Below, one piece after another: positions 14,073 through 40,534 of a stretch of 64,000 nt of DNA. Position 1 is the stretch's first letter; each line of letters opens with the position of its first letter. The position numbers and the translations under genes are program-made. The notes under the pieces are model-generated. The model was not told the origin of the DNA and made no database searches. It worked only from the letters and a program-made list of their open reading frames with translations. This stretch comes from Escherichia phage vB_EcoM_LNA2, in sequence record MZ311865.1; one strand, given 5' to 3'.

Positions 14073-14705
14073 TCACAGTACATTAGTTACAAGGGTAATG
14101 ATTTCTTTGGACACATTAGGGAAGTCAATGTAAGTATATTTACCACCGATCTTAATCTTAACATCATTTTCAAGAGAAGTAAACAGCTTTGATTCAGTTT
14201 CTGACATGTTGTATGCAAAGATTCTAAGAGCGCCATCTCGACGAATTTCAATTTGGCGAATGCCTAGAACTCGTTTAGCGAATCGAACTTCTAAGTTACT
14301 ACGGTTTTCACCAATTTCTTTAACTTCAACTTTATCTTTAATATTTTCAAAAACAAAGTTTGCTAATTCATGCATTTCAGGAGTAACTCCACGTGCTTTT
14401 CTAGTGTTACGTTTCTGAAGAAGTTCTGGAGCATTTTCTTTGGCAAAGAGGTCTGCAGCTTTTTGGATAATATCCATTGCTTCGCCTGTTGCTACAAGTC
14501 CATCACCGGATTTTTCGACTAAACCTTTCTTAATCAATACACCAATGTTAGAGTTAACAACTGATGCATTGTATTCCGCTTCCAGAGCTTCACGGACATT
14601 GGCAGCAGTGGTGAAGTTGTTCTTAATGATATAAACCATTATTGCAGCAGTTTTTTCATTCAGAGCGTTTTCAGAAGCTTTGATGATGTAAGTAACTTTA
14701 GACAT
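14073..14705 (-). CDS. motA: middle transcription activator MotA
   Basis: 210 aa; MSKVTYIIKAS...NIGVLIKKGLVEKSGDGL... matches recalled T4 MotA; position between asiA and gene 52. Confidence 0.9.
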   Translation of the reverse strand: MSKVTYIIKASENALNEKTAAIMVYIIKNNFTTAANVREALEAEYNASVVNSNIGVLIKKGLVEKSGDGLVATGEAMDIIQKAADLFAKENAPELLQKRNTRKARGVTPEMHELANFVFENIKDKVEVKEIGENRSNLEVRFAKRVLGIRQIEIRRDGALRIFAYNMSETESKLFTSLENDVKIKIGGKYTYIDFPNVSKEIITLVTNVL

Positions 14706-14775
14706 TTTATTTCTCCAAATTAGTATTTGTTTTGATAGGTCTATAATATCATGTTTGAAGCAAAAGTAAACTTTA
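14701..14775 (-). repeat. copy A of ~75-bp duplicated promoter/5'UTR/start-codon cassette
   Basis: Near-identical to 15021..15097; includes GTTTAC -35, TATAAT-like -10, SD and ATGTCTAAA start of motA. Confidence 0.7.
14742..14771 (-). promoter_or_regulatory. T4-type early promoter (GTTTAC-N18-ATTATA) for motA
   Basis: Minus strand reads GTTTACttttgcttcaaacatgatATTATA; ~40 nt upstream of motA start. Confidence 0.5.
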
Positions 14776-14809
14776 TTTTGGGCTCTTTTTCCAAAAGCCC
14801 TGGTAAAAT

Positions 14810-15025
14810 TTACAAACTCATTTCTTTAATAAGGCCAATAAGTTTTGCCTTTTTAGAACGAAGCTTTTCTAAACGATGTCCATTTGAACCGCGAACCACT
14901 AAAGAATTGATTTCAACTTCTAAGAAATTTAATTCTTCAACAAGTGCTTTACGGGGAGCATTCATACCAGGTTTAACTTTACCAAAACGAGTAGTTGTGT
15001 TTTGGGTTAATTTCATTTTAGACAT
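14810..15025 (-). CDS. hypothetical 71-aa basic protein flanked by duplicated promoter cassette
   Basis: ORF MSKMKLTQNTTTRFGKVKPG...; starts with same ATGTCTAAA context as motA; lies between genes 52 and motA. Confidence 0.5.
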   Translation of the reverse strand: MSKMKLTQNTTTRFGKVKPGMNAPRKALVEELNFLEVEINSLVVRGSNGHRLEKLRSKKAKLIGLIKEMSL

Positions 15026-15097
15026 TTTATTTCTCCAATTTGGTTGTTTTGTTTTGATAGGTCTATAATATCATGTTTGAAGCACATGTAAACTGTT
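15021..15097 (-). repeat. copy B of ~75-bp duplicated promoter/5'UTR/start-codon cassette
   Basis: Near-identical to 14701..14775 (3-nt indel, few mismatches). Confidence 0.7.
15064..15093 (-). promoter_or_regulatory. T4-type early promoter (GTTTAC-N18-ATTATA)
   Basis: Minus strand GTTTACatgtgcttcaaacatgatATTATA upstream of the 71-aa ORF. Confidence 0.5.
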
Positions 15098-15103
15098 TTG
15101 TGA

Positions 15104-15134
15104 GAAAAATGCACAAAAGGGAGCCGAAGCTCCC
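15104..15134 (-). terminator. intrinsic terminator (UUCG hairpin + U-run) after gene 52
   Basis: Plus GGGAGC-CGAA-GCTCCC (15119-15134); on minus strand hairpin is followed by TTTTGTGCATTTTT. Confidence 0.5.
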
Positions 15135-15210
15135 TAATCATGTTTGTCCAACCAATACAGCCAAATCACTAGTGCAGCTATTGCACCGAGAAATCCTAAG
15201 GCTAGGGCAC

Positions 15211-16536
15211 TCAAAGTGCCTCCAAGTCTTTAGTGTACTCTGTCACAACATCGGTAGACTTCCAATACTCATTTTCTTCTTTCTTAGCTTTAGCTTCTTC
15301 GGCTAGTTTACGTGCTTCATCGGAAGTGATATGGAAGATGTTAAGACCTACCAGTTTATCGACATGTTCTTTATACATTTCTATTTGTGCTAGCTCTTCA
15401 GTCAAAGCTTTACGAGTCTTGCCCTGAATCACAATTTCACCGTTGATAACTTTTTTGATGAAGTGTGCCTTAGCAAAAGCCAGTTTAAATGCTTTTTCAG
15501 ATTCAAGGATTTTGTTGTCAATACGTTTCTGAACGTAAGTCTTACGGACTTCAACAAAATCTTTGATTAAGTCCACTACGTTATCGTAGACAGCTAATTT
15601 ACCCTTTTCATTAATCACTGTGATGTTTTGTGAACGACGTTCGATGAGACTAAAATCTTTCATGATTTTTTCATGACGTAGCTCTTCATCATCAGGAAGC
15701 GAGTACTCTTTACGGAACTTCACCTTAAACCCAAAGCCGTGTTCACCACAATCATCTTCCCATGAGATTAGACCTTTGTCTTCCAACGGGTCAAGAACCT
15801 TACTCACATACGTTTCACGGTCGAATTTATATGGGATTTCAGTTATCTGCATTTGAGTGCGAGATGTGAACTTATACGTTCCGTGAATCTCATAACGCCC
15901 ATCAACTTCATGTACTTCACCACGGAATTCCGGGAATTCAACTTTTGGCTTAGTGACATTTTTACCTTGAAGAGCTTGTAATACAGCCTTTTTTACCGAT
16001 TTAAAACTATGAGGCAGAATATTTGTTGCGTAACCGGTTGCAATACCAGAGACGCCATTCAAAAGAACTGTCGGAATAATAGGAAGATAGAATTTTGGTG
16101 GAATGTGTTCTTTATCTTCATGAGCTGGAGCATATTCAGTATCTTTATATACGTTATAGAAATTTTTACTTACACGAGCAAAAATATAACGAGATGCTGC
16201 AGCTTTTTGGACTGTTCTAGAACCAAAGTTGCCTTGGCCATCTAACAGTGGATAGTTGTTGTTCCATGTGTTAGCCATCAATGCACCTGCATCTTGTGCA
16301 GAAGATTCACCATGGTGATAACCTAAATCTGCAACACCGCCTGCAATTGACGCAAGTTTATGAAATTTTTCTTTATTACCACGAGCCAAATCTAACGCAC
16401 GATGGACCACAAAACGTTGAACCGGCTTAAATCCATCAATCATGTTTGGGATTGCACGGTTTTCAACGGTGTACATCGCATATGCTAAGGCTTCGTTATC
16501 AATAATACTTTTTAGATTACGAGAATTCAATTGCAT
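15211..16536 (-). CDS. 52: DNA topoisomerase II medium subunit gp52
   Basis: 441 aa; MQLNSRNLKSIIDNEALAYAMYTVENRAIPNMIDGFKPVQRF (GyrA-like) matches recalled T4 gp52. Confidence 0.9.
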   Translation of the reverse strand: MQLNSRNLKSIIDNEALAYAMYTVENRAIPNMIDGFKPVQRFVVHRALDLARGNKEKFHKLASIAGGVADLGYHHGESSAQDAGALMANTWNNNYPLLDGQGNFGSRTVQKAAASRYIFARVSKNFYNVYKDTEYAPAHEDKEHIPPKFYLPIIPTVLLNGVSGIATGYATNILPHSFKSVKKAVLQALQGKNVTKPKVEFPEFRGEVHEVDGRYEIHGTYKFTSRTQMQITEIPYKFDRETYVSKVLDPLEDKGLISWEDDCGEHGFGFKVKFRKEYSLPDDEELRHEKIMKDFSLIERRSQNITVINEKGKLAVYDNVVDLIKDFVEVRKTYVQKRIDNKILESEKAFKLAFAKAHFIKKVINGEIVIQGKTRKALTEELAQIEMYKEHVDKLVGLNIFHITSDEARKLAEEAKAKKEENEYWKSTDVVTEYTKDLEAL

Positions 16537-26830: not shown

Positions 26831-27355
26831 TCATTTTAGCAAAATAAAATCAACTTGTTCTGCCAATGAACGTCTGAACATTAATTGACAACTTCCGAGG
26901 ATGAAATCAGGTGCTTCATAGACCGCGATGTAGTATCCTTTAGCTTTCAAGAGTTCAACATCCACCTGGTCATCAAACCATGCATAAACCGCGTCAACAC
27001 TTTCAAATCCAAAATAGAACTCTTGAGCCCAATCTTCGCTCAATTCAAATGTGTGCTCAATTCTATAGTATCTTAAGATATTTTGTTCAAGGAGTTTGTC
27101 TTCATTTACTGTAGGACGATTAGGGACATTATAGTTGTCGCCATGATGGTAGAAGTTACCTGAGAGTATTCCATGCTTATCAAGGAACTCCCATGTTTCT
27201 TCAGAGTTGTCGGTGCCCGACCAACCGTATGGCGAACGAGGTTCTTTATTCCAAGAGGTTTCCCAAATTCTGACGGCTTTACCGTCTTCAATAGCAATTC
27301 CTGGTAATGATTCACGTTGAGTACAAAAACTACGTTCTACGCGGTAAACTAACAT
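26831..27355 (-). CDS. hypothetical early protein
   Basis: 174-aa ORF; 5' UTR carries 12-bp inverted repeat that would pair with the SD. Confidence 0.5.
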   Translation of the reverse strand: MLVYRVERSFCTQRESLPGIAIEDGKAVRIWETSWNKEPRSPYGWSGTDNSEETWEFLDKHGILSGNFYHHGDNYNVPNRPTVNEDKLLEQNILRYYRIEHTFELSEDWAQEFYFGFESVDAVYAWFDDQVDVELLKAKGYYIAVYEAPDFILGSCQLMFRRSLAEQVDFILLK

Positions 27356-27360
27356 ATTAT

Positions 27361-27410
27361 TCTCCTCTGGTTGATATGGTTATAATATCAAAACCAGAGG
27401 AGAAGTAAAC
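27361..27410 (-). promoter_or_regulatory. promoter-in-stem-loop module: 12-bp inverted repeat sequestering SD + internal early promoter
   Basis: TCTCCTCTGGTT (27361-27372) / AACCAGAGGAGA (27392-27403) perfect inverted repeat; GTTTAC 27405-27410; -10 at 27381-27386 in loop. Confidence 0.5.
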
Positions 27411-27414
27411 AACT

Positions 27415-39790: not shown

Positions 39791-40104
39791 ATTTCCTCGC
39801 AAAATGCCCATTCAGCGTGATAAACTGTAGCACCTTTAGTATCATTCATTTGAACTACGTCTACCGGAGAAATTACTCGATAGAGACGTGGTTCACCTCC
39901 ATAAGAGCGTGCTGCTCGTCCTGCATAAATCTTTGCTAAACCGATATCTTCAGTAAAGAATACACGATCCAAGTTTTTCTTACGTCCAGTTTCAGACAGA
40001 ACTCCTGTTTCCTCAGGAGGACAAAGCATGTTTTCGATGTTAGCTGAACTACTTGAACCGTGATAAAAAATCTTAAATTCTGCTTTACAATCGATGGTTT
40101 TCAT
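39787..40104 (-). CDS. hypothetical accessory protein (105 aa)
   Basis: ORF between 41 and dmd with no remembered T4 counterpart; contains FYHGSS...KIYAGRA...E. Confidence 0.45.
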   Translation of the reverse strand: MKTIDCKAEFKIFYHGSSSSANIENMLCPPEETGVLSETGRKKNLDRVFFTEDIGLAKIYAGRAARSYGGEPRLYRVISPVDVVQMNDTKGATVYHAEWAFCEEI

Positions 40105-40129
40105 TTTGTTCTCCAGTAGTTGATAGGTC

Positions 40130-40159
40130 TATAATAACACAACTACTGGAGAAGTAAAC
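40130..40159 (-). promoter_or_regulatory. T4-type early promoter (GTTTAC-N18-ATTATA)
   Basis: Minus strand GTTTACttctccagtagttgtgttATTATAGACC. Confidence 0.45.
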
Positions 40160-40534
40160 TTAAAAACGTAATTTAGATATATCTGCGTTGATTTCGGTTT
40201 GGTTTGCGTCGTATGCAATTAAACGAACAGCTTTAGATGGATCATTCAATGCATAGAAATGATGGAACATTGCTCGAACGATATCACCATTTACGAGTTC
40301 TACCTGGATAGGAGAACCTTTTTCGAGTTGGAAATGTTCATAGGCTTTGATGGTTCGCAGATAATCAAGTTTTTGATTTCCGGCTCCAACAATTTGTACG
40401 ATACGTTTGCCCATGTTTTCCATACGAGATACAATAGTTTTAGGAGCAAGAATAACGTAGGTTGCCAGCGGAGAAACTACTTCAACAGTGGTGTTTTCGG
40501 TGATTGCAGTAAAAATTGCTTGAGACATATTCAT
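40160..40534 (-). CDS. hypothetical accessory protein (124 aa)
   Basis: ORF immediately downstream of gene 41 on minus strand. Confidence 0.45.
   Translation of the reverse strand: MNMSQAIFTAITENTTVEVVSPLATYVILAPKTIVSRMENMGKRIVQIVGAGNQKLDYLRTIKAYEHFQLEKGSPIQVELVNGDIVRAMFHHFYALNDPSKAVRLIAYDANQTEINADISKLRF

Follow-up and report, generated by a model that had tools for sequence, protein, structure and literature searches.

A small gene between two copies of a putative early expression module at the motA-52 junction of Escherichia phage vB_EcoM_LNA2 and related T4-like phages

In the genome of Escherichia phage vB_EcoM_LNA2 (sequence record MZ311865.1), two near-identical direct repeats flank an open reading frame (ORF) of 71 codons, hereafter orf71, which lies between gene 52 and motA, the gene coding for the middle-transcription activator. 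The question that this locus raises is what the repeats are and how a small gene came to lie between them. An earlier note on the 64,000 nucleotides of this genome analysed here (hereafter, the window) had likened the repeats to cassettes proposed to shuffle small ORFs among T4-type genomes, and had concluded that the 71-codon gene was gained by recombination between promoter copies. According to our analysis, the repeats are probably two copies of one early expression module of the PeSL (promoter early stem-loop) type, recombination between which would swap or delete the small gene. The gain of orf71 in this genome was not established; the gene is as diverged as its flanks.

The existence of the repeats is confirmed by their alignment, in which 76 of the 86 aligned positions are equal and a single indel of two nucleotides occurs; owing to this indel the ungapped identity (66%) is misleading, and gapped alignments were used instead. 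The two copies start 320–322 nt apart. The limits first assigned to them (14701–14775 and 15021–15097) located the repeat properly, the true repeat being a few bases longer on the genome (14697–14780 and 15017–15102). It includes two perfect blocks, GCTTCAAACATGATATTATAGACCTATCAAAACAAA (36 nt) and TTGGAGAAATAAAATGTCTAAA (22 nt), neither of which has a third site in the window at up to three mismatches (0.00 expected from shuffles), and the 14-nt core GGAGAAATAAAATG is restricted to the same two sites. In an 86-nt frame starting at the G of the -35 element, the two copies share 84% identity, vs. a mean of 59% and a maximum of 70% for the other 44 pairs that can be formed among the ten minus-strand sites of the window matching TTTACW-N15-17-TAYWAT. 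The similarity of the repeats is thus well above the generic background of early promoters.

The genes of the locus are all on the minus strand; in the direction of transcription its features are the following:

15211–16536, minus strand: gene 52, topoisomerase II medium subunit, the upstream neighbour (ORF of 441 amino acids, annotated as gp52 in matching records).
15134–15214, minus strand: hydrophobic micro-ORF of 26 amino acids at the position of T4 motA.1, with a TTG start overlapping the gene 52 stop.
15118–15135, minus strand: hairpin H1, AGGGAGC-UUCG-GCUCCCU followed by UUUGUG (-15.5 kcal/mol, z -3.9).
15017–15102, minus strand: repeat copy 2 (86 nt), putative expression module of orf71, made up of the A/T-rich CACAAAACA, the -35 TTTACA (15087–15092), TG and the -10 TATTAT (15065–15070), leader patch A (AAAACAACCAAA), GGAG (15033–15036) and ATGTCTAAA (15017–15025).
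14810–15025, minus strand: orf71, basic protein of 71 amino acids (PHROG 6200).
14780–14800, minus strand: hairpin H2, GGGCUUUU-GGAAA-AAGAGCCC, without a U-tract (-12.2 kcal/mol, z -2.9).
14697–14780, minus strand: repeat copy 1 (84 nt), putative expression module of motA, made up of the A/T-rich CAAAATAAA, the -35 TTTACT (14765–14770), TG and the -10 TATTAT (14743–14748), leader patch B (ATACTAAT), GGAG (14713–14716) and ATGTCTAAA (14697–14705).
14073–14705, minus strand: motA, middle-transcription activator (Pfam MotA_activ, 1.4e-38, and MotCF, 2.2e-08; PHROG 1345).
14697–15016, minus strand: 320-nt indel unit, comprising orf71 from codon 4, H2 and copy 1; this is one possible delimitation, as its boundaries can slide inside the repeat.

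Both copies have the same anatomy. The A/T-rich stretch stands directly 5' of GTTTAC, and the GTTTAC promoter with its -10 element, already recognized in each copy, is indeed there, with a spacing of 17 nt to TATTAT (TTTACA-N16-TATTAT) and not of 18. By consensus match, copy 2 (TTTACA-16-TATTAT) scores 10/12 and copy 1 (TTTACT-16-TATTAT) 9/12, so that both would be of the sigma-70 type, each with a TG extended -10. A leader of about 40 nt, A-rich and predicted to be unstructured, follows each promoter and leads to GGAG-N7-ATG. As had been noticed, both ORFs possess a Shine-Dalgarno sequence and an MSK start, that is, GGAG followed by ATG TCT AAA. Copy 2 runs into orf71 and copy 1 into motA; judging from how the promoters score, one copy would serve each gene, in agreement with the earlier suggestion. 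Other early modules of the window have GTTTAC, TATTATAGACCTATCAA and GGAG in common.

The spacers of the two promoters also contain TGCTTCA (14755–14761 and 15077–15083, minus strand; TGCTTTA in Dhakaviruses), which matches the MotA-box core and of which the window holds 63 sites of the form TGCTTYA. A reading of these sites as parts of middle promoters was rejected, since only 7 nt separate them from TATTAT, whereas 11–13 bp to a -10 TAnnnT are required.

PeSLs have been described as composites of an early promoter, a stem-loop, a Shine-Dalgarno sequence and a start codon; pairs of them flank single ORFs that are missing from a sister phage with one module, and excised mini-circles were detected (Arbiol et al. 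2010, PMC2839356). The model was then extended to T4 and PST, with the promoter TTTACW...TAYWAT and the stem-loop just upstream of it (Comeau et al. 2014, PMC4122927). Each unit of the present locus harbors a hairpin, an A/T-rich stretch, an early promoter, a Shine-Dalgarno sequence and an ATG, as do the PeSLs of PST and T4 type, which bears out the likeness initially drawn. The same does not apply to the UUCG hairpin, which had been considered the end of the insert: in the direction of transcription, H1 comes before copy 2, upstream of it, and relatives without the insert have it unchanged. Being present in empty alleles, it is outside the indel, and it would terminate the gene 52 unit and also supply the stem-loop of the upstream PeSL. 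The hairpin that does belong to the insert is H2, the predicted stem-loop of the downstream PeSL, which moves with the cassette. Each of these two stable hairpins is just upstream of one promoter, H1 with a U-rich tail and H2 with none. The orthologue of H2 in Dhakaviruses, GAGCUCUU-GAAA-AAGAGCUC, keeps its stem through a paired change from A-U to G-C plus a change from C-G to U-G.

We checked whether orf71 and both repeats are conserved in all the relatives of this phage; they are not, and about half of the Mosigvirus records lack one repeat unit. The window itself belongs to Mosigvirus (RB69 group), with 100% identity to Escherichia phage HX01 over the 526 bases compared, and many other records are 97–99% identical to it over the motA-52 interval. 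Probing 50,697 phage records with the orf71 protein (tblastn) retrieved it from 93 of them, in single copy in each; in 92 records the DNA context extends from the start of motA to the end of gene 52. The gene is essentially confined to the motA-52 locus of Mosigvirus, Dhakavirus and a few Tequatroviruses, the latter by recent transfer, and it is present in about 75 of the approximately 157 Mosigvirus records that match the flanks. The empty Mosigvirus alleles (RB69, F27, G2469, p000v, DCP548, mar006P2 and phiC120 among them) have a motA-52 interval of 214–219 nt, vs. 532–537 nt with the insert, and exactly one module is left in them. The in silico removal of 14697–15016 gives the empty allele of F27 with a match of 213/214, and the RB69 allele is nearer to the product of a deletion with its crossover in the 36-nt core (8 vs. 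13 differences).

The occupancy of the same site in the three genera can be depicted as follows:

Mosigvirus: empty in RB69, F27 and others; orf71 in HX01 (and the window) and others.
Dhakavirus, JS98 type (13 records): orf71.
Dhakavirus, MX01 type (many records): empty.
Dhakavirus IME341: orfX (73 amino acids), an unrelated ORF preceded by the same promoter and leader.
Dhakavirus IME281: orfY (75 amino acids), a third ORF, with the same H2 and promoter after it.
Dhakavirus IME08: a tandem of orf71 and orfX, accompanied by three modules whose repetition extends from the promoter to the ATG.
Tequatrovirus T4: empty.
Tequatrovirus CM8: orfY directly upstream of motA.
Tequatroviruses BGP and Manna: orf71.

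The motA-52 junction is, according to these data, a cassette hot spot across three genera, with empty, single, double and alternative-cargo alleles. Homologues of orfY (95–99% amino-acid identity) occur in about 131 phage records, mostly Tequatroviruses though not T4 itself; the gene is directly upstream of motA in CM8 and, by comparison of coordinates, in three further Tequatroviruses. In Shigella phage CM8, the hairpin and promoter that accompany orfY are of Dhakavirus type, the backbone is of T4 type, and the left junction is at a conserved CTATCAA just past the T4-type promoter. Homologues of orfX are found in Mosigviruses with 63–66% identity, at another locus beside genes 1 and 57A, and in Aeromonas T4-like phages with about 39% identity; the one of phage ST0 is flanked by early promoter modules, the downstream one ending in TGGAGAAATAAAATG. 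No homologue of orfX or orfY was found in the 64-kb window.

The repeats also bear traces of exchange. Two markers lie 35 nt apart within them, i.e., the spacer after the -35 element (ATGT or TTTT) and the leader patch (A or B), and all four combinations occur over copy 2, copy 1 and the modules of empty alleles. Among the alleles with the insert, HX01 (and the window) has ATGT/A in copy 2 and TTTT/B in copy 1, NHEP10 has patch A in both copies, ST2 has patch B in both, and SA79RD has TTTT/A in copy 2; among the empty ones, F27 has ATGT/A, RB69 and pEK20 have patch B, and mar006P2 has TTTT/A. In Dhakaviruses, the copies are alike within a genome and unlike between genomes (TTCT twice in JS98, TTAT twice in VR5), and the variant CGTGTTATTAT is common to different copies in C6 and IME08. 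This within-genome likeness points to concerted evolution by gene conversion or repeated exchange. The motA leader of IME341 is chimeric, a motA-type 5' part (AAATAAATGGTTATCGGAGAT) being joined to a cassette-type 3' part (ACAAAATG); this joining of two leader types points to a crossover inside the Shine-Dalgarno region.

The start of orf71 itself differs among genera. In Dhakaviruses (JS98, VR5 and C6) and in the Tequatroviruses BGP and Manna it is ATGAATAAG, that is, ATG AAT AAG ATG AAA (MNKMK); in these genomes the orf71 leader is unlike the motA leader and the duplicated promoter core measures only about 41 nt. The Mosigvirus orf71 starts with MSKMK, and the 22-nt TTGGAGAAATAAAATGTCTAAA is identical at orf71 and motA. 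The simplest reading would be that a conversion tract copied the translation-start region of motA onto the Mosigvirus orf71, altering two codons and turning MNK into MSK. The MSK start of both proteins, which had been ascribed to the two repeat copies, is seen as described; in orf71 it would represent a Mosigvirus-specific replacement of an older MNK start and no by-product of the original insertion. As for the Tequatroviruses, the flanks of BGP are 97.7% and 98.3% identical to T4 and only 76% and 62–65% to Dhakavirus, whereas its orf71 is 94–97% identical to that of Dhakavirus; the left junction is GGAGATTAAAATG|AATAAG and the right one falls inside the promoter spacer. A Dhakavirus-type orf71 has clearly moved into a T4-like backbone in BGP and Manna, with junctions inside promoter and translation-start elements.

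In principle, the following mechanism would account for these findings. The module would consist of an upstream hairpin, an A/T-rich stretch, a GTTTAC -35, an extended -10, an A-rich leader of about 40 nt, a GGAG and an ATG; one copy would express orf71 and the other motA, each gene forming its own immediate-early transcription unit. Since they are direct repeats 320 nt apart, the copies would also be substrates for homologous recombination. An unequal exchange between them would remove orf71 together with one module and so produce the insert-less alleles, the opposite exchange would re-insert orf71 and a module, and an exchange between co-infecting phages would swap the small gene lying between modules, gene conversion keeping the copies alike. 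In Mosigvirus, the conversion tract that carried TTGGAGAAATAAAATGTCTAAA onto orf71 would have provided it with the MSK start, a motA-like promoter and ribosome-binding site, and a RegB-type GGAG with its A-rich context.

Other explanations have to be weighed against this one. If no recombination were involved, the modules would be alike through selection for one optimal early promoter and ribosome-binding site; T4-type early promoters do have a long consensus in common, and the modules of the window share GTTTAC, TATTATAGACCTATCAA and GGAG. We regard this as very improbable, because other promoter pairs do not exceed 70% identity vs. 84–88% here, the likeness extends to spacer and leader positions without known function and to the codons TCT AAA, and the 36- and 22-nt blocks are confined to two sites; moreover, variants shared by the copies of one genome, mosaic markers and indels of exactly one unit are signatures of recombination. 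The interval might also be a duplicated non-coding leader of motA with a chance ORF. The ORF is small, and neither Pfam (best match RACo_C_ter, E = 0.05, below the family cut-off) nor PADLOC gave a significant family or a defence-system match, respectively. No remote homologues were retrieved from 1.84 billion representatives by a HMMER profile search, which returned only the family and three weak hits, each confined to a short stretch of a long protein and taken as spurious. Yet the length of 71 codons is kept across three genera, the ratio of nonsynonymous to synonymous substitution rates (dN/dS) is 0.15–0.22 (0.23 for motA) with saturated synonymous sites, third codon positions represent 10 of the 14 variable sites in six Mosigvirus copies, and the family has its own PHROG (6200, function not annotated, E = 1.6e-39). 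An AlphaFold2 model (mean predicted local distance difference test, pLDDT, 76) depicts a disordered basic N-terminal tail and a helical hairpin (helices 23–44 and 50–70), and appears confident over the helical part. These data indicate that orf71 is a real gene under purifying selection, and the probability that it is not a gene can be considered negligible.

Concerning the direction of the event, a recent gain would imply that an RB69-like ancestor with a single module took orf71 from a donor fragment or a mini-circle via the promoter module, the empty state being ancestral in Mosigvirus. Empty alleles are indeed common, with RB69, T4 and the divergent ESCO47 among them; gains do happen, as BGP and Manna acquired a Dhakavirus-type orf71; and copy 2 of the window exactly matches the single module of F27. 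This scenario is nevertheless rather unlikely. Between HX01 and JS98, the nucleotide identity of orf71 (70.8%) is close to that of gene 52 (75.6%) and motA (73.8%), and the number of synonymous substitutions per synonymous site (dS) is 1.1–1.5 for orf71 and 1.0 for motA; the diversity of orf71 within Mosigvirus (96.8–98.1%) equals that of the flanks. Since its divergence equals that of the flanks, orf71 would have resided at the locus since about the time at which the two genera separated, or would have been exchanged only within each genus. No closer donor was found in the 50,697 phage records or in 5.8 billion proteins, a word-based search of the latter giving eight orf71 clusters (at 90% identity), all with at least 72% identity. 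In addition, insert-bearing and empty alleles interleave in the neighbour-joining trees of both gene 52 and motA, which were used for this purpose only and not to polarise gain vs. loss. Finally, the motA-type start region CGGAGATTA(G)AAAATG is found in both T4 and JS98, unlike in the empty allele of Dhakavirus MX01, in which an orf71-type leader (GAAATGGAGATACAAAATG) is fused at the ATG to motA; the MX01 allele would consequently be a deletion product. Patch A compares with the Dhakavirus orf71 leader at 0.75–0.77 and with the motA leader at 0.63, and patch B with the orf71-type and motA-type leaders at 0.73 and 0.74–0.76, about equally; an orf71-type ancestry of A and a motA-type ancestry of B are at most suggested by these values. 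Altogether, the insert-less alleles are more likely deletions, and we consider it fairly probable that orf71 resided long at this locus and was recurrently lost, rather than being recently gained in this genome.

Several points weigh against a module-driven history of residence and loss. Empty alleles are found in ESCO47 (of the Mosigviruses sampled, the most divergent), in T4 and in many Dhakaviruses, as would also be expected if the ancestor was empty and gains came later; the flank trees rest on about 2% divergence, blurred by recombination; the ancestry of the two patches is read from alignments of only about 35 nt; and either allele could be spread by ordinary homologous recombination in the flanking gene 52 and motA, the module having no special role. 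Furthermore, promoter activity and recombination are predicted for this phage from its sequence, and a terminator function of H2 is doubtful, given its lack of a U-tract. A further point concerns RegB. The RegB/S1 site is a single-stranded 11-nt GGAGRAYARAA in the translation-start region of early mRNAs, motA being a good substrate in T4 (Durand et al. 2006, PMC1702504), where its Shine-Dalgarno sequence is cleaved by RegB (Uzan et al. 1990, cited in PMC3014915). Both Mosigvirus leaders, predicted to be unstructured, read GGAGAAAUAAA, which matches this consensus at 9 of 11 positions and deviates at positions 7 and 8; the orf71 leader of Dhakavirus reads GGAGA(C/U)ACAAA, with C at disfavoured positions. 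It might be inferred that orf71 and motA of Mosigvirus share promoter, ribosome-binding site and, possibly, sensitivity to RegB.

Compared with known systems, the locus is a well-resolved further example of the published PeSL shuffling model and not a new kind of system. As in that model, the module precedes a small gene without known function; two copies flank one ORF that is absent from close relatives, which keep exactly one module; the -35 and -10 elements fit TTTACW...TAYWAT, with a stem-loop just upstream; one ORF may be replaced by another at the same site, and a single (chimeric) module stands at the empty site. As to dispersed copies, ten sites of the promoter type lie on the minus strand of the window, and similar modules surround the orfX homologue of ST0. 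Unlike the PeSL consensus, the spacing here is 16 nt and not 17, one of the genes served is motA, a regulator of an essential pathway, and the repeat enters codons 2–3, so that recombination would have rewritten the N-terminus of the cargo. Neither of the two papers (PMC2839356, PMC4122927) mentions the motA-52 locus, RB69 in connection with it, Mosigvirus or Dhakavirus at this site, or gene conversion. What this locus adds to the model is that copies evolve in concert, that recombination can enter the coding region and rewrite the cargo's N-terminus, and that the site adjoins the core regulator motA. It also represents a clean natural example of T4-like phages swapping small accessory genes with expression signals as portable homology, the junctions being readable base by base. 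From a practical viewpoint, about 320 bp could be deleted or replaced in Mosigvirus engineering, and a simple polymerase chain reaction (PCR) assay could reveal module recombination.

Repoila et al. (1994, as cited in PMC4122927) are said to have described how, in T-even phages, the genes of internal proteins (IP) are shuffled between early promoter regions that are conserved. That case is similar in having alternative small early genes at one locus, within conserved regulatory bounds and differing between close relatives; the locus and the cargo are other ones. Integron cassettes offer a looser parallel: zero, one or two small promoter-proximal ORFs at a fixed site, exchangeable cargo and a plausible circular intermediate. 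Unlike integrons, the present system has no integrase, attC or attI, exchange would use the general homologous recombination of the phage, and each cassette has its own promoter. In T4, motA is likewise directly preceded by an early promoter and has a GGAG Shine-Dalgarno sequence followed by an A-rich tract; the T4 unit differs in the sequence of the module and in the absence of orf71, and the site GGAGAAAUAAA predicted here for RegB matches at 9/11 only.

A broader possibility is that the motA-52 junction is a dedicated landing pad for several genera, at which orf71, orfX and orfY are exchanged in order to enter the expression regime of motA (promoter, ribosome-binding site and RegB-sensitive Shine-Dalgarno sequence). 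If so, the conversion of the orf71 start would have been adaptive, serving co-regulation, and the cargo proteins would act as modulators of the early-to-middle transcription switch or of host takeover. The hot spot is apparent from the alleles described above; the functional coupling is speculation, and we deem the idea as a whole improbable.

With regard to the protein, orf71 was correctly described as basic (isoelectric point 10.6; 15 lysine and arginine residues vs. 6 aspartate and glutamate residues). Its model, being a generic helical hairpin, allows no function to be inferred from the fold, and Foldseek, run on viral models and on the PDB, found nothing beyond the Bp7 orthologue and non-specific helical hairpins. 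A scan of IMG/VR with orf71 retrieved JS98 and VR5 only and is unfit for a census.

Two other modules of the window, at about 40088–40160 and at 27340–27411 (both minus strand), have stems of 12–14 bp in which the spacer of the promoter is base-paired to the Shine-Dalgarno region (-21.5 and -23.9 kcal/mol; z -4.9 and -6.1). The upstream arm of each stem lies before the transcription start, and for this reason the Shine-Dalgarno sequence would be occluded only in read-through RNA from upstream and not in the module's own transcript. These two modules correspond to the PeSL class whose stem encloses the -10.

An ORF of 42 amino acids at 15013–15141 (minus strand), annotated in some GenBank records (e.g., NHEP10), is almost certainly spurious; it covers the putative terminator hairpin and the orf71 promoter. 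The product of the micro-ORF at 15134–15214 (minus strand) is SALALGFLGAIAALVIWLYWLDKHD, with an ATG start in LF82-3 and ESCO47, and the micro-ORF is found in insert-bearing and empty alleles alike. Its place is taken by a version of 34 amino acids in Dhakaviruses and by the 49-residue motA.1 in T4; the Mosigviruses pEK20 and 348Ecol098PP have the Dhakavirus-type version, which represents another small mosaic patch.

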